Shown here piece by piece: positions 47,861 through 53,888 of a stretch of 64,000 nucleotides of DNA (the stretch's first letter is position 1; each line of letters starts with the position of its first letter). Under the pieces are notes generated by a model. That model made no database searches, was not told the DNA's origin, and saw only the letters and a program-made list of their open reading frames with translations. The translations under genes were made by a program, and so were the position numbers. Origin of the DNA: an uncultured Gemmatimonadales bacterium (GTDB lineage Bacteria > Gemmatimonadota > Gemmatimonadetes > Gemmatimonadales > GWC2-71-9); NCBI GenBank assembly GCA_963771275.1, contig CAVYSW010000003.1, forward strand, positions 1,600,001 through 1,664,000, read 5' to 3'.

Positions 47861-47983
47861 CGGCCCCGAGCAGGTCACACTCGAGGGTGGGGACACGGGT
47901 GGGCGACCTCCCTGGCGGAGCCGCCCGGCGGGGGTTATTAGGGAAAGGCCACGCGCTCCGGACCCGAAAGGCGGCCGACCCCG

Positions 47984-49174
47984 GTGCCGTCCACCCCCAG
48001 CGCCCGCGTCCCCGCGGCGGTTCGTGCGAGGGCGCGGCGAGCCGTTTTGCCGGCGCCGGCCCTTGCCCTGCTCGCCGTCCTCGGTGGCGGTTGCGATGAC
48101 GGCGTGGAGGTCGAGGCCCGTGAGGTCAGCGTGCGCGCCGGCCAGGACATCTCGCTCCTGCTGCGCGTTCCCCCCGCACCCGCCCAGGCGAATCCCGCGG
48201 CCGCCGCGCTGAACGCACCCGGACACAGCGACGTCGTGGTGCGGCTCGCCGGCACGCAGACGGGCAGTCGCAAGCTCGTTGTCGACGAGGGGTCGGCCAA
48301 GGTGCGGCTGCAGGCGCCCGGCGCGACGGCAACCGGGGCCGCGGCGTCCCCCACGTTCGCGCGCGCACCGGGCGAGCGACCGCTCGTCGCGGTCTTCCGG
48401 CGATCCGGCGGTGGCTCCGGATGCCGTGACTATGAGGCCCTCGCGTTCGTCGATCGGTTCCCGCTCGCTGCAGGCGACGTCTGCCTTGACGGGGCGGCGG
48501 CGTTCGGTGCAGATCGCAAGGCCGAGCCGCTGACGGCGTCCGCCTGGGCCACCGCGGCCACCGCTAACGCGGTCGTGCCACCGGTCGTGATTCAGGTGCG
48601 GATCGTCGGCGGCGACAGCCGATCGGAGGCCTGGTGGGCGCTCGCGCGGCGCCAGTTGGGGGTGAATCGGATCGGCGCAGACCTCGCTGCCGTGCCGGAC
48701 GGCGAAAGCCTTCCCGGTGACGTGTCGGAGTCCGCCGTGGCCGGGTGCGCGTCACTTGACCATGACTGGCGACCCAGGGCGCCCGCCGTCATCACCATCG
48801 CGTTCGTGCGGGAGCTGACGGCCGGCAGCGGTATGTCGGAAATCGGTGGGGAGTGGTGTGCGGGAGACTCGGTCGCGATCGTGAGCCTGAACAAGGGTCT
48901 TCCCGAGACGCTGCTGCATGAGCTGGGCCACGCCTTGGGGTTGTGCCACCCGGGTGATGGGGTCGATGGACGCGTCACGAACCTGATGTACGACCTGCCG
49001 GACCTTGATCAACCGGCCCCCCGGCGCTGGCTCACCGTCGGGCAGGCCTATCGCGCCAATTTCAGCCCCTCGTCGATGTTGCGGGCTGTGCGCGATGGGG
49101 TGTCGCCCGACCCGGTGCGGTGTCGCTGCGATCTGTGCCCGAGCGACGCCCTCGACCTCCGGAGAGGGAAGTAG
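47984..49174 (+). CDS. Putative lipoprotein with metzincin zinc-metalloprotease motif
   Basis: LAVLGGGC lipobox-like; HELGHALGLCH (HExxHxxGxxH) at 48917-48949 followed by an NLM Met-turn; Cys-rich C-terminus CRCDLC. Confidence 0.72.
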   Translation: MPSTPSARVPAAVRARARRAVLPAPALALLAVLGGGCDDGVEVEAREVSVRAGQDISLLLRVPPAPAQANPAAAALNAPGHSDVVVRLAGTQTGSRKLVVDEGSAKVRLQAPGATATGAAASPTFARAPGERPLVAVFRRSGGGSGCRDYEALAFVDRFPLAAGDVCLDGAAAFGADRKAEPLTASAWATAATANAVVPPVVIQVRIVGGDSRSEAWWALARRQLGVNRIGADLAAVPDGESLPGDVSESAVAGCASLDHDWRPRAPAVITIAFVRELTAGSGMSEIGGEWCAGDSVAIVSLNKGLPETLLHELGHALGLCHPGDGVDGRVTNLMYDLPDLDQPAPRRWLTVGQAYRANFSPSSMLRAVRDGVSPDPVRCRCDLCPSDALDLRRGK

Positions 49175-49177
49175 CCG

Positions 49178-50521
49178 ATGCTGGGCAAGCTGCTGGCGCT
49201 GCTGGCGGTGCTCCTGGTGGCTGGCGCCATCGCGCTGGCCATCGTCCTCCCGCGCCGCGCCCGGTCGGCCGCCGTCCACGCCTGGCTGGTGTGCGGCGAC
49301 TGCCAGGAGGACGAGCTCGCGCGCGTGCTCCGGTACGGCGGCAAGGTCGTGGATCCGCTGCGCGATGCGCTGCTCGACGGGCCGTCGCCGGCGCGCCGGC
49401 GAGCGATCGCGGCGCAGAGCGCCCAGGCCTACGTGGGCCGGTCCCCTGCGCAGGTCGGCGAGAACGTCGCGCACGACGTGGCCAACTACGTCGCCCTCTA
49501 CCAGGTGCGGGCGATTCACGCCCTGGCGGCCCTGGCGGACAGCGGCATCGCGAGCGCGGCCGCCGCACTGACGGCGTGTTGGGACAGCACCCAGGCGGGG
49601 CGTCGCACGTACCGGCCGGACGTGTGGCGCCGTCTCGAAGTGGCCGCGACGCTGGCGGGCGCCGGACCACTGGGACGCGGAGGCTCCTCCGACACGGCGG
49701 CGTTCGGGCAGACCGTCACGGTGCCGCGAACGGCGCCGCCGGCCTGGGGTCCGGCGACTGCTCTCTCCCTGGTCGGATCGCCGTTCGCGGACGACCTGGT
49801 TGTGTTCCGATCGCCCGACACGCTCCGCTTCCTCGCGATCGGGTGGGTCGGGCGACAGCTCGTCCGCATCGTGCCGGCGCCCCGGGCCACTCCCGAGTGG
49901 CGAGCGCTGTCCATCGGCCGCATGCGGTATCGGATGCGCACGCCGGCGGACGCCGAGACCATCGCCTTGCGCGACAGTGCGCCCCGGTTCGCCGCGCTGA
50001 GGCGGGGCACGGACTTTCATCGCGTCGCGTCCGGACACGGGGCGACCACGCTGGCGGACCTCGACTGGTCGGGAGCCGGCTCGGTGTGGCCGGAATGGCG
50101 GTCTTGCGCCCAGCCCGATTCTCTGGAGCGGTGGGGATCGCCTTCGGCCACGCGGGTCCTCGGGCGCGTCCTGTCCGCCGGAACGCCGCTGGGGAGGGCC
50201 ACGGTGGCGGTGGTAGGAACTGCGCTCAGCGCGATGACCGACTCGCTTGGGCGGTTCGCCCTCACCGTGCCGTTCACTGGGCCCAACGCAGTGGCTCTCG
50301 CCGTCAGCGCCGTGGGTCATGAGACCCTGAGGTTCCGGGCGCACGTCGGCGTGGGGGACGGCTACGAGGCGCGTCTCGCCCGCACGGGGCGGCCTGACGT
50401 CGCCGGCGTGACCCTGCCGAGCGGGCCGCTGGTCACGTGCGTGTTCCTCGCGGCCCGCGTGGATTCCACCCCGGCCGGCGCCGAGCCGGTCGTGGCCCGG
50501 CTTCGTCTGCGCTGGCCGTGA
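49178..50521 (+). CDS. Membrane-anchored hypothetical protein (CxxC, HEAT-like helices, carboxypeptidase-regulatory-like beta domain)
   Basis: N-terminal TM; WLVCGDC; G.V...GTPL..ATV.V.GT....TDS.GRF.L...L.VS.VG.E. Confidence 0.7.
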   Translation: MLGKLLALLAVLLVAGAIALAIVLPRRARSAAVHAWLVCGDCQEDELARVLRYGGKVVDPLRDALLDGPSPARRRAIAAQSAQAYVGRSPAQVGENVAHDVANYVALYQVRAIHALAALADSGIASAAAALTACWDSTQAGRRTYRPDVWRRLEVAATLAGAGPLGRGGSSDTAAFGQTVTVPRTAPPAWGPATALSLVGSPFADDLVVFRSPDTLRFLAIGWVGRQLVRIVPAPRATPEWRALSIGRMRYRMRTPADAETIALRDSAPRFAALRRGTDFHRVASGHGATTLADLDWSGAGSVWPEWRSCAQPDSLERWGSPSATRVLGRVLSAGTPLGRATVAVVGTALSAMTDSLGRFALTVPFTGPNAVALAVSAVGHETLRFRAHVGVGDGYEARLARTGRPDVAGVTLPSGPLVTCVFLAARVDSTPAGAEPVVARLRLRWP

Positions 50522-53397
50522 GCCCGACCGGAAGCGCCCCGCTCGGGCCGCGCCCGCTGTCGGTCGAGCGGCTGCGCGAGTGCCTGGCGCCGCGCTACGA
50601 GGTCGAGCAGGAAATCGGTCGCGGCGGGAACGCCGTGGTCTACCGGGCCCGCGACGTGGAGCACGGGCGGGCGGTGGCCGTGAAGGTCGTGCGCGACGAG
50701 ATCGCCGTGCTGCTCGGGGTCGACCGGTTCCTCCGGGAAGTGCAGATCGAGGCGCAGCTCCAGCACCCGCACATCCTGCCGCTGTACGACTCCGGCCGCG
50801 TGGACGGCCGCCCCTACTACGTGACGCCGTATGCGGCGGAGGGCTCGCTGCGCGACTGCCTCCGGCGCGAGAAGCAGCTCCCGCTGGACGACGCCGTGCG
50901 CATCGTGGAGCAGATGGCCGACGCGCTGGCGCACGCCCACGCGCGTGGCGTCGTGCATCGCGACGTGAAGCCCGAGAACATCCTGTTCACCGCCGGCCAC
51001 GCGGTGCTCGCCGACTTCGGCCTCGCCCGCGCCATCACCGTGGCGGCGGGCGAGCGCATCACCCAGAGCGGGATCGCGGTGGGCACGCCGAGCTACATGA
51101 GCCCGGAGCAGGCGGCGGCCGACGGCGCCGTGGACGCGCGCAGCGACCTCTACGCGCTCGGCTGCGTGCTGTACGAGATGCTCGCCGGCAGCCCGGCGTT
51201 CGACGGCGCCACCGCGCAGGCGATCCTCGCGCGCCAGCTGTACGATCAGCCGCCGTCGCTCGCGATTCTGCGACCCAAGCTCCCGGCCGGCGTCTTCCGG
51301 TTTCTCGAGCGGGCGCTGGAGAAGACGCCGGCGGACCGGTGGCAGAGCGCGGCCGATTTCTCGGTCGCGCTCGCCGCCGCGGTCCGCACCCCGGGGCTTG
51401 CCGCTCAGGCCGCCGCACGCCGTCGCCGCCGGATCGTGCTCGCCGCGGCGGCGGTGGTCGCGACGGCCGCGCTCGTCGTCTGGTGGCCGTTCGCACCCCC
51501 GACCCTGGAGCGGGACCGCGTCGTGGTCTTCCCGTTTACGGAGCGCGGCGTACCGGTGGCGCAGGCCGGCCTCGGCGCGGAAGTCGCCTTGGGCATCCTC
51601 CGGTCGCTGGAGCACGCCGAGGTCATGACCTCGCTCGACGGCTGGGACCGGCTCGACGAGCGCGAGCGGGCCGATCCGGACCGCGTGACGGCTCGGCGCG
51701 CGCGGGCCATCGCGCGGGATCGCCGCGCGCGTCACTACATCACGGGCGTCGTGGAAGGAGGGGTGGATTCGGTGGCGGTCTCGGTGCGGCTGTACGACGC
51801 CGCGGCCGATACCCTCGTGCGACAGGCGAGCGCCAGTGCGCCGGCCAGCGCGGCCGCCGCGGGCCAGGTGGGAGAGACGGCGCTCAAGGGCGTGCTCCCG
51901 GCGCTGCTCGATCCCGGGTCGGCGACCGACATCGGGGTGCTCGGCCAGAGCCAGTCCGCGGCCGTGGCGCTGTGGCTCCACGGCGAGCGCGCGTACCGGT
52001 CTTCCCGCTTTCGGGACGCGCTCGCCGCCTTCAGCCGCGCCGTCGCGCTCGACTCCTCGCTTGGCGTCGCTGCGGTGCGCGGCGCCCAGGCGGCGGCATG
52101 GGTGGGGCAGTGGGGGCGTGCGGACACGCTGCTCGACTACGGATTGGCGCGGGAGCCAACGCTGCCGGAGCAGTACCGCCTGCTGGCGCACGGGCTCCGG
52201 TACTACTTCGACGGCCGGCCCGACTCGGCGGCGTCCTGGCTGACCCGCCTCACGCAGCGACGACCGGAGTGGGCCGACGGCCGGATGGCGCTCGGCGAGG
52301 TGTTCTATCATCTGGGGGCGTCCGTGCTGGGAGGCGACTCGCTCGCCGCCATCGAGTTCCGCGCGGCCCTGGCTGCCGACCCGCGGTTCACCCCCGCGCT
52401 CCGCCACGTGACGGAGCTGGCGATTCGGGCCGATCGGCCCGACAGCGCCCGCAAGCTGCTCACCCGCTACCGGAAGGTCGAGCCGGACAGCTCCGTCGTG
52501 CTGCCCATCGAGTTGATGCTCGCGTGTGTCACCCACGGGCCGGGCAGCGAATGGCAGATGGCAGCAGCGCGGGATCCCGGCGCGGTGATGAACGCCGGGC
52601 TCCAGCTTGCCGGGCGCGGGGCGCACCCCGCGTGCGCGGAGGCGGCGTTCCGCGCCCTGCTCGCGGCGCCCGACGCGGATGAGCGCACGCGATGGGGCGG
52701 GCTGATCGGGCTCCAGACGCTGCTGGTGGCCACCGGCCGGCCGCGCGAAGCCCGGGCGCTGCTCGACTCGGCGGTGCAGGCCGGCGACAGCGACGCGCTG
52801 TCGTACTACGTGATCGGCGCCCTGGCCGGCGCGCCGATGGAGCAGGGCGTGCGGCAGCTCGAGGCCCTCGTGCGGGAGGCGTTCCAGGACGACTACCGCC
52901 GCATCGTGGGCGCACGCTACGTGTGGCTGCTCGGCGTCTGGTACGCGCACACCGGCGACGCGACGCGGCTGCTGCGCGCGCTCGCGGCGATCGACGAGAA
53001 GGTGGCGCAGCATCACGCGCCGGTCGACTCGAATCTCGCGGCGGCGCTCCGCGCCCACCTGGCGCTGGTGCGGCGGGACACCACGGAGGCGCTGCGGCGG
53101 TTCCGCGCCCTGTCCGTGGTGGGGCCGCGCGAGACGTTCGCCTGGAGCCCCGCCGACCCGCTCGCGGTGGAGCGCATCCGGCTCACCGAGCTGCAGCTTG
53201 CGACTGGTGCGTTTCGGGAAGCCCTGCGCACCGCGAGCTACCTCGACGATCCCGAGCCCGTCGTCTATCTCGAGTTCCTCCCGATGAGCCTGGCCCTGCG
53301 TCTCGCAGCGGCACGGCGTCTGGGGGACCGCCGTCTGGAGCGCCAGCTGGAGCGGCGGCTGGCGGCGCTCGGGCGCGCCGAGCCGAATCGGCACTGA
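50518..53397 (+). CDS. Transmembrane Hanks-type Ser/Thr protein kinase with extracytoplasmic TolB-N/TPR-like region
   Basis: GTGA overlap start; GRGG.AVVY, VAVKV, HRDVKPEN, DFG, GTP.YMSPE, DLYALG; TM RRRRRIVLAAAAVVATAALVVWW; VVVFPF then helical repeats. Confidence 0.93.
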   Translation: MSPTGSAPLGPRPLSVERLRECLAPRYEVEQEIGRGGNAVVYRARDVEHGRAVAVKVVRDEIAVLLGVDRFLREVQIEAQLQHPHILPLYDSGRVDGRPYYVTPYAAEGSLRDCLRREKQLPLDDAVRIVEQMADALAHAHARGVVHRDVKPENILFTAGHAVLADFGLARAITVAAGERITQSGIAVGTPSYMSPEQAAADGAVDARSDLYALGCVLYEMLAGSPAFDGATAQAILARQLYDQPPSLAILRPKLPAGVFRFLERALEKTPADRWQSAADFSVALAAAVRTPGLAAQAAARRRRRIVLAAAAVVATAALVVWWPFAPPTLERDRVVVFPFTERGVPVAQAGLGAEVALGILRSLEHAEVMTSLDGWDRLDERERADPDRVTARRARAIARDRRARHYITGVVEGGVDSVAVSVRLYDAAADTLVRQASASAPASAAAAGQVGETALKGVLPALLDPGSATDIGVLGQSQSAAVALWLHGERAYRSSRFRDALAAFSRAVALDSSLGVAAVRGAQAAAWVGQWGRADTLLDYGLAREPTLPEQYRLLAHGLRYYFDGRPDSAASWLTRLTQRRPEWADGRMALGEVFYHLGASVLGGDSLAAIEFRAALAADPRFTPALRHVTELAIRADRPDSARKLLTRYRKVEPDSSVVLPIELMLACVTHGPGSEWQMAAARDPGAVMNAGLQLAGRGAHPACAEAAFRALLAAPDADERTRWGGLIGLQTLLVATGRPREARALLDSAVQAGDSDALSYYVIGALAGAPMEQGVRQLEALVREAFQDDYRRIVGARYVWLLGVWYAHTGDATRLLRALAAIDEKVAQHHAPVDSNLAAALRAHLALVRRDTTEALRRFRALSVVGPRETFAWSPADPLAVERIRLTELQLATGAFREALRTASYLDDPEPVVYLEFLPMSLALRLAAARRLGDRRLERQLERRLAALGRAEPNRH

Positions 53398-53418
53398 GTC
53401 CACTCGTGAGGAGGAGCC

Positions 53419-53682
53419 ATGAACGCAACCAGCAACGGAGTGAGCAAGACGCTCTTCTGGATCGTCGCCGCGGTGGTGTTCCTGATCGAGCTGCTGCTGC
53501 TGTGGCAGGTCAACCAGCTGACGAAGTACACACAGAAGCTCGACGGCTGGCTGCGGAGCACCATGCAGGTGTGCGAGGTCGTCGCCCCGAACACGATCCA
53601 GTGCAAGAAGCTGGGTGACGCGATCGGCGGTGCGGAGGGGATCCAGCCGCCGCCGAAGTGCTCGTGGGGCAAGTGTCAGTAG
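53419..53682 (+). CDS. Small single-pass membrane protein with 4-Cys C-terminal peptide
   Basis: Strong GAGGAGGAG RBS; TM LFWIVAAVVFLIELLLLW; tail CEVVAPNTIQC...GIQPPPKCSWGKCQ. Confidence 0.8.
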   Translation: MNATSNGVSKTLFWIVAAVVFLIELLLLWQVNQLTKYTQKLDGWLRSTMQVCEVVAPNTIQCKKLGDAIGGAEGIQPPPKCSWGKCQ

Positions 53683-53811
53683 CGGCAGGCCCCCGCTGAA
53701 GCGGGCGGGGCGACCGAATCGCGTGCCGGTCGCCCCGTCAGGGGGCCCGCCATCGGTCACCGTCGGATCGTCTGCGGCGCTTCCCACGGCCGCGCGATCG
53801 TGCTGCGCAGA

Positions 53812-53839
53812 TTGACGCAACAGGGCCACCGCGTACCTT
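53812..53839 (+). promoter_or_regulatory. Possible sigma70 promoter
   Basis: TTGACG-16 nt-TACCTT, about 50 nt upstream of the 53889 ORF. Confidence 0.4.
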
Positions 53840-53888
53840 ATTACTCGGTGCAGATGCCAAGGGGTTTTCGCGGCTGGAGGATGAGCAC

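Follow-up and report, generated by a model that had tools for sequence, protein, structure and literature searches.

The 64,000-nucleotide (nt) stretch analysed here, referred to as the window, belongs to an uncultured Gemmatimonadales bacterium (contig CAVYSW010000003.1, positions 1,600,001 to 1,664,000). It harbors four consecutive genes, g1 to g4, for a predicted metzincin protease, a protein with a CxxC motif and a HEAT-like helical domain, a receptor-type Ser/Thr kinase and a small single-pass protein. All four open reading frames (ORFs) are located on the forward strand, g1 and g2 being separated by 3 nt, g2 and g3 sharing a 4-nt GTGA overlap and g4 following g3 after 21 nt. The coordinates, strands, junctions (3, −4 and 21 bp) and motifs listed for the four genes in an initial annotation of this DNA were all found again (Table 1). 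Since the four genes recur together in related genomes, they look like one cell-envelope signalling unit, a conserved but patchily distributed envelope-signalling cassette of Gemmatimonadales. The stem-loop behind g4 folds at −51.5 kcal/mol (z −3.64), an energy reached by none of 200 shuffled sequences, and probably represents the end of the operon. Consensus scans returned 0 promoters and 0 T-tailed terminators, which is expected because the G+C content of the window is 72%.

Table 1. Features of the four-gene locus and of the genomic slot that holds it (window coordinates unless another locus is named; aa, amino acids)
Feature	Coordinates	Strand	Basis or remark
g1, ADAM/adamalysin-like metzincin, predicted exported, 396 aa	47984..49174	+	ORF, motif, AlphaFold2 (AF2) model and Foldseek
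g2, predicted membrane-anchored periplasmic protein with HEAT-like helical domain and beta-sandwich region, 447 aa	49178..50521	+	ORF, alignment, AF2 model
g3, receptor Hanks-type Ser/Thr kinase, GTG start, 959 aa	50518..53397	+	ORF, Pfam, profile
Shine-Dalgarno-like GAGGAGGAG, upstream of g4	53408..53416	+	read from sequence
g4, small single-pass protein, 87 aa	53419..53682	+	ORF, codon-position GC, positional counterparts
GC-rich stem-loop 3' of the g4 stop codon	53684..53751	+	folding versus shuffles
Variable slot, CtaG gene to SnoaL-like gene	window 47861-53888; L102 2746-6224; L103 2853-6563		L102 and L103: other Ser/Thr kinase genes, opposite strand

Searches of 60 relatives with the single proteins gave almost no matches, the exception being L017, a single 3.5-kb contig. 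Its genes for a metzincin, a WLLCDDC protein and a kinase with the g3-type ectodomain follow one another as in the window, stop and start codons overlapping in the same way. The overlaps (GTGA/ATGA) are kept in genome G056. A two-sequence profile found matches in 22 of 401 genomes of the order, and a 19-sequence profile of the CxxC domain in 16 of 401 genomes sampled across the phylum, with one copy each. Further loci were sought among species-representative genomes with a degenerate DNA pattern of the WLxCxEC motif, which identified 40 loci, 34 encoding the CxxC domain and 6 representing chance matches; 7 of the 34 duplicated loci already in the set and 8 came from records titled as other phyla. 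The resulting synteny tally comprised 38 non-redundant Gemmatimonadota loci, including the window. The metzincin gene adjoins the CxxC gene in all 38. Of these loci, 30 encode a kinase with the cognate ectodomain (E<1e-50), and 34 have a kinase domain of any type at a distance of at most 400 nt. The small polyproline-tailed protein is encoded at 28 of the 30 loci with the cognate kinase, and at the other two (L017 and L060) contig ends cut the expected place. Co-occurrence of the four genes in related genomes, which the initial annotation had singled out for a survey, was thus observed at 28 of 30 kinase-bearing loci. The loci lacking the cognate kinase have a short contig or the pair at a contig end (L043, L073, L086), a kinase split over frames (L045, L057, L075) or a kinase with another ectodomain (L071, L093).

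Five arrangements were encountered, namely protease-CxxC-kinase-small, kinase-small-protease-CxxC, CxxC-protease-kinase-small, protease-CxxC-small with a divergent kinase, and a convergent form; the linkage therefore persists through rearrangement. In metagenomes, the small protein was found at 5 of 5 kinase-bearing loci with an intact slot. Profile searches of the window genome located one match each for the metzincin, CxxC-domain and small-protein families, in every case at the cassette. Only 2 of the 49 kinase genes of this genome are followed by a small, Pro-tailed ORF with high G+C at third codon positions, one being g4 and the other encoding an unrelated 158-aa protein. The four-gene arrangement is far beyond chance. 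None of the conclusions drawn here depends on the unpublished genome G020. The cassette kinases at L057 (8539-11372) and L075 (8482-11624) lie in several reading frames, owing to frameshifts or assembly errors.

The g1 product contains HELGHALGLCH at residues 312-322 (48917-48949), which fits the HExxHxxGxxH signature, and the Met-turn NLM(335)Y with Met335 at 48986-48988. An alignment of 43 proteases showed invariant H, E and H residues, the Met-turn Met (N-x-M, 43/43), a GQ and a C-terminal C...CP motif, along with four invariant Cys; in most relatives the third His lies five residues further on, in a nearly invariant GH(T/S) motif. The best PDB matches of the family profile were a snake-venom metalloproteinase and ADAMTS-5 (E 4e-4). 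The AF2 model of g1 has a predicted local distance difference test (pLDDT) score of 72.6, with the catalytic part mostly above 85. Foldseek related it to ADAMTS1/4/5, ADAM33, adamalysins, archaemetzincin and fragilysin (26 matches at E<=1e-3, probability 0.97-1.0); the top matches, ADAMTS1, archaemetzincin, ADAM33, ADAMTS5 and adamalysins, had a probability of 1.0 and TM-scores on the target of 0.37-0.53 among the top ten. At Pfam and NCBIfam cut-offs, neither g1 nor any of the 14 Gemmatimonadota relatives had a protease-family match; g1 scored 18.8 bits against Pfam M66 (cut-off 20.6). One relative, that of L085, passed Pfam Reprolysin_3 (27.5 versus 22.4 bits) and the others stayed below the cut-off. 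Judged by its modelled fold, g1 is an ADAM/adamalysin-like metzincin. The motif and Met-turn of the "metzincin lipoprotein" proposed initially hold; its N-terminus, ending in ...LAVLGGGC, is lipobox-like without being canonical ([LVI][ASTVI][GAS]C). A search of 1.84 billion clusters gave 1200 representatives of the metzincin domain family at E<=1e-10. Its best relatives (P0002-P0039) are mostly proteins of 670-920 aa with two matched stretches, pointing to a duplicated catalytic domain in some members.

In g2, as noted initially, one N-terminal hydrophobic helix precedes the motif W36-L-V-C39-G-D-C42 (C39/C42, 49292-49303). A beta-sandwich region, also described there, follows the N-terminal helical domain; residues 327-396 matched Pfam CarboxypepD_reg at 28.3 bits, below the 32.3-bit cut-off. 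The CxxC is invariant (C16/C19 of the 19-sequence alignment) and is placed between helices 1 and 2 of the conserved part of the protein, a 140-residue all-helical domain modelled with seven helices (AF2 pLDDT 93.5). One repeat in the g2 profile (positions 88-125) resembles alphaRep/PBS-HEAT repeats, and Pfam HEAT matches in g2 relatives were sub-threshold. No PDB structure matched the g2 model in Foldseek at E<=1e-3. The best VIA-align hit (tepsin, ENTH/VHS-like, Z 8.3) was within the background for helical proteins, and the best ESM Atlas score of 0.85 is a lead only. The CxxC domain reached no Pfam or NCBIfam model at the curated cut-off, and a word-based protein search with g2 recovered only g2 itself. 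Most relatives of g2 appear lipoprotein-like, the N-terminus ending in LAAC, VVGC, LLAC or similar; the window g2 has no Cys after its hydrophobic helix. In other phyla, the CxxC/HEAT domain makes up the whole protein (170-210 aa).

The kinase domain of g3 (50596-51345) matched Pkinase (PF00069) with an E value of 3.3e-48 and carries GRGGNAVV at residue 34, VAVK at 53-56, HRDVKPEN at 147 and DFG at 166. From these motifs, g3 is considered an intact Hanks kinase, and the transmembrane (TM) helix and TPR ectodomain attributed to it initially were recovered as well. The TM helix spans approximately residues 305-323 (~51430-51486) and is preceded by RRRRR; the C-terminal part of ~620 aa (51538-53394), which contains the TPRs, is therefore predicted to face outwards into the periplasm. 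A profile of 27 ectodomain sequences matched consensus TPR proteins at E values of 7.5e-42 to 1e-12 over profile positions ~150-320; g3 as a single sequence scored 24.5 bits against TPR_19, just below the 25-bit Pfam cut-off. Weak matches of this profile include the PTS1 receptor. The ectodomain family has two invariant Cys. One weak paralogue (E 5.8e-7) was found among the 49 Pkinase matches of the window genome, in which all four families of the cassette are otherwise single-copy. The g3-type TPR ectodomain is restricted to the cassette. The 49 Pkinase-domain matches are contained in a genome of 3.86 Mb, and several of them are clustered (e.g., C10:319957-331385).

The single-pass nature of g4 was likewise recovered: a TM helix at residues 11-29 is followed by a Trp-containing helix, by Cys 52, 62, 81 and 86 and by a C-terminal ...GIQPPPKCSWGKCQ tail. 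The G+C content by codon position (0.55/0.41/0.93), the GAGGAGGAG in front, the hairpin after the stop codon and the presence of the protein, without a name, in public annotation all indicate that g4 is a real gene. Its counterparts were first seen at four loci as an ORF with high third-position G+C lying 27-44 nt after the kinase stop codon. The set was then enlarged by profile, and nine more members were added by a scan for Pro-rich C-termini beside the cassette, giving a total of 28. The small protein reached the curated cut-off of no Pfam or NCBIfam model, and a word-based protein search with the alignment returned four proteins, all without a name. Within the last 60 residues, all 28 proteins contain one or more Trp and 19 contain two or more Cys; an aromatic residue is found among the last six in 23. 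A Gly-rich stretch followed by PPP or PPxPP within the last 15 residues is present in 17 of the 19 proteins that were not found by that criterion. The extreme C-terminus is the best-conserved part.

The N-termini of the small proteins are diverse. Nine carry a lipoprotein signal, two (L083 and L055) a prepilin-type signal and seven, including the window g4, a TM helix, so that 18 of the 28 have some export or anchor signal; the other ten are Lys/Arg-rich with no hydrophobic segment. L083 scored 17.2 bits on TIGR02532 (cut-off 16.3) and L055 contains GITPIE; g4 was not assigned to the pilins, as the prepilin G-F/I-T-L/P-I-E motif is absent from it. L053 has two hydrophobic segments, predicted to bring the C-terminus back to the cytoplasm. 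The small proteins of L051 (4895-5191) and L054 (4691-4987) start like Lpp/OprI alanine-zipper lipoproteins, at a sub-threshold score (NF040598, 23.2 versus 43 bits), and continue with the Trp helix and a PPPPF end.

The protease and the CxxC/HEAT protein are also found outside the kinase context. At the eight loci from records titled as other phyla, the two genes are adjacent in every case, and both the kinase and the small protein are missing from all eight. The pair is instead accompanied by a membrane adenylate/guanylate cyclase of ~790 aa (L082, L091, L095, L096), by a HisKA_3 kinase with a LuxR-type regulator (L058, L068) or by an extracytoplasmic function (ECF) sigma factor (L085); no signalling neighbour was seen at L089. 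A second pattern scan, of metagenomes, yielded 52 loci. The CxxC domain is encoded at every one of them, and the metzincin adjoins it at 46. Five of the remaining six have a contig end at most 500 nt from the expected side, and L146 has 4 kb upstream without a metzincin. Twenty metagenome loci had enough flank to annotate, and 11 of these encode a signalling or regulatory protein within 3.8 kb, a count in which related organisms may be represented more than once. The neighbours are an ECF sigma factor (L105), a sigma-54 activator (L108), CHAT proteins (L114, L121, L142), TPR Ser/Thr kinases of another kind (L115, L143), a cyclase (L126), a BlaR1/BlaI-like pair (L132) and a HisKA_3 kinase with a LuxR regulator (L136, L152). 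Metzincin and CxxC/HEAT protein are an obligate side-by-side pair that occurs in several phyla.

Additional genes accompany the pair at some of these loci. Proteins with a twin-arginine translocation (Tat) signal are encoded between the transducer and the metzincin gene, those beside a TPR kinase having 174-183 aa and ending in DIHVEC (L115 3672-4223; L143 7815-8339) and those beside a CHAT protein having 318-355 aa and ending in CPPA(W/S)I (L114 2177-3244; L121 5827-6783). Directly after the CxxC/HEAT gene of the Myxococcota-type loci L082 (7498-7665, +) and L091 (5862-6101, +) lies a conserved ORF of ~55 aa that is zinc-ribbon-like (ICGWC...CPSC). Just before the membrane cyclase gene of L091 (1117-1389, +) and L095 (2707-2979, +), a small ORF has a signal-like helix ending in AGDCD(C); it may be that lineage's equivalent of the small protein.

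From these features a working scheme can be proposed in which all four products would act on the periplasmic side. Binding of extended or C-terminal peptides is common among TPR domains, and the small, usually membrane-tethered protein could be the partner of the kinase TPR ectodomain through its C-terminal tail. The protease pair would decide kinase signalling by cleaving either the small protein or the ectodomain, and the CxxC may, speculatively, tie protease activity to redox or metal state. An outward-facing small protein is consistent with the nine lipoprotein and two prepilin signals among the 28 and with the invariant Cys pairs in the ectodomain, the protease and g2. We tentatively prefer this combination of tail-mediated partnership and control of the kinase state by cleavage, with less than even confidence. 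A broader proposal is held with more doubt, namely that the metzincin and the CxxC/HEAT protein could form a portable periplasmic "proteolytic input module" wired, depending on the phylum, to a Ser/Thr kinase, cyclase, histidine kinase, ECF sigma factor or CHAT protease. In Gemmatimonadales, a membrane-tethered polyproline-tailed ligand would then be read by a TPR receptor kinase, as a bacterial counterpart of ADAM-type shedding, possibly with a trans-acting cysteine switch.

Several observations weigh against the working scheme. The ten small proteins without an export signal are a misfit with a purely periplasmic partner, and around the TM helix of g4 there is little charge bias (N-flank +2, C-flank +1). 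The cassette is also rare, with 16 positive genomes among the 401 of the phylum sample and none found among six of the same genus. No signalling neighbour was seen at 9 of the 20 annotated metagenome loci, a raw count not set against background. Further, the transcription regulators beside the pair (ECF sigma factors, LuxR-type regulators, sigma-54 activator, BlaI-like repressor) fit a regulated output equally well.

The main rival builds on this last point. The pair would be a regulated effector, e.g., a protease of the envelope or extracellular space together with a chaperone or inhibitor, whose production or activity is controlled by the neighbouring kinase, cyclase, two-component system or sigma factor, and the small protein would serve the protease as substrate, inhibitor or anchor. 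Genes adjacent to a local regulator are usually under its control, and the neighbours outside Gemmatimonadota are often transcription regulators (L085, L105; L058, L068, L136, L152; L108; L132). In Gemmatimonadales, however, the kinase lies in the same translationally coupled operon and its ectodomain family is restricted to the cassette, and a Ser/Thr kinase or cyclase has no direct control of transcription; this explanation is regarded as rather unlikely, though it ranks first among the alternatives. A much less probable explanation is that the four genes are unrelated and share a variable slot of a kinase-rich genome by chance; the slot does vary within the genus and the genome does hold 49 kinases, but the synteny tallies and the conserved stop/start overlaps contradict it to the point that it is scarcely credible.

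Taken in full, the model of the initial annotation would make g4 a pro-ligand from which g1 sheds a diffusible C-terminal peptide, to be sensed by the TPR ectodomain as an autocrine or quorum signal. Its expectation of co-occurrence was borne out, 11 of the 28 small proteins carry lipoprotein or prepilin signals, and the operon does contain a dedicated ADAM-like protease together with a small exported protein, best conserved at its extreme C-terminus, encoded beside a TPR receptor. TPR receptors of RRNPP systems read protease-matured peptides from an adjacent gene, according to the sections of the reports available (PMC10075063, PMC11343458). What does not hold is the tie of the pair to kinase and peptide: the pair occurs in other phyla with neither, and so is not a dedicated sheddase of g4-type peptides. 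The small proteins also keep a folded-looking core (Trp helix in 28/28, Cys pair in 19/28) beyond a mature-peptide end, ten lack an export signal and no cleavage site is evident, all of which make a diffusible peptide improbable. In the available part of one report, leaderless signalling peptides are described in RRNPP systems (PMC10518010). A cytoplasmic small protein, acting as substrate, pseudosubstrate or adaptor of the kinase domain and linked to the protease pair indirectly, would account for the ten Lys/Arg-rich N-termini without a hydrophobic segment, the Thr-Pro-Pro-Pro at the tail start in 9 of 28 proteins (Thr-Pro-Lys in L040) and the topology of L053. The same domain is placed outside by 11 lipoprotein or prepilin signals, the Cys pair is present in 19 proteins and the kinase has no cytoplasmic domain other than the catalytic one, so that this location is given slightly less weight still than the diffusible peptide.

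No description of the four-gene layout was found in literature searches, and publications beyond those searched may hold one. The signalling part of RRNPP propeptides is often at the C-terminal end. The RRNPP(A) systems of Firmicutes (Rap-Phr, PlcR-PapR, NprR-NprX) resemble the cassette in having a TPR receptor beside a small gene; in those systems the exported product of that gene is matured by extracellular proteases, as far as the available sections of these papers describe them (PMC10075063, PMC11343458, PMC9765709). In contrast to RRNPP receptors, which are cytoplasmic and need re-import of the peptide, the cassette TPR region would be the periplasmic part of a membrane kinase. The cassette further differs in having a protease gene in the operon, a Gemmatimonadota host and a small protein that is membrane-anchored and has a folded-looking core. 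RRNPP membership was rejected, as the TPR domain lies outside the cell after the RRRRR-TM helix, on a kinase and not on a cytoplasmic regulator. With the animal system of ADAM sheddase, EGF-family ligand and receptor kinase, the cassette shares an adamalysin-type metzincin fold, a membrane-tethered small protein and a single-pass receptor kinase; it differs in that there is no homology past the protease and kinase folds, cleavage is hypothetical and the bacterial pair also stands beside non-kinase transducers. In its working, the cassette would come closest to an inverted RRNPP receptor/propeptide pair or to ADAM shedding that acts on a receptor kinase, while being a member of neither. In regulated-proteolysis sensors, such as the site-1 proteases of anti-sigma factors and BlaR1/BlaI, an extracytoplasmic protease is likewise coupled to a membrane transducer, and at some loci the pair is found beside ECF sigma and BlaR1/BlaI-like genes. 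Those proteases belong to the DegS, PrsW and M56 families, whereas that of the cassette is an M12B-like metzincin, and no anti-sigma factor was identified at the cassette loci.

The nearest described kinase architecture to g3 is that of PknS of Xanthomonas citri, a transmembrane Hanks kinase whose kinase domain lies in the cytoplasm and whose TPR region, beyond one TM helix, is periplasmic and needed for signalling; its ligand is unknown, according to the accessible part of the report (PMC13147305). The ectodomain of g3 differs in its length of ~620 aa and in an extra N-terminal domain. PknS works with the ECF sigma factor EcfK, and that part of the report mentions no protease, CxxC/HEAT or Pro-tail protein (PMC13147305). 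Little is known of the ligands and activation mechanisms of bacterial receptor Ser/Thr kinases whose ectodomains are not of the PASTA type, the PknS signal being an example as far as that source goes. The cassette gives one such ectodomain a defined set of candidate partners, i.e., the protease, the CxxC/HEAT protein and the small tailed protein, and it defines three families without a Pfam or NCBIfam name (the protease, the CxxC domain and the small protein). If it is an input, the protease/HEAT pair, recurring beside many signalling types, would represent a new element of signal transduction in bacteria.

With respect to genomic context, genes for SCO1, PCuAC and CtaG lie upstream of the cassette and genes for a SnoaL-like protein, a TPR protein and an M16 peptidase downstream. 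A link to copper through SCO1, PCuAC and CtaG was considered and rejected: none of these genes has a counterpart in any of 18 related loci, and the same applies to the downstream SnoaL and TPR genes, so that the adjacency is local. The initial annotation had described the cassette as inserted between housekeeping genes. The flanks (FAA-SCO1-PCuAC-CtaG ... SnoaL-TPR-M16) are indeed kept in two genomes of the same genus, but the slot between them varies: in these two genomes it is filled by different kinase genes, encoded on the opposite strand. Occupation of this slot by the cassette is thus specific to the species.

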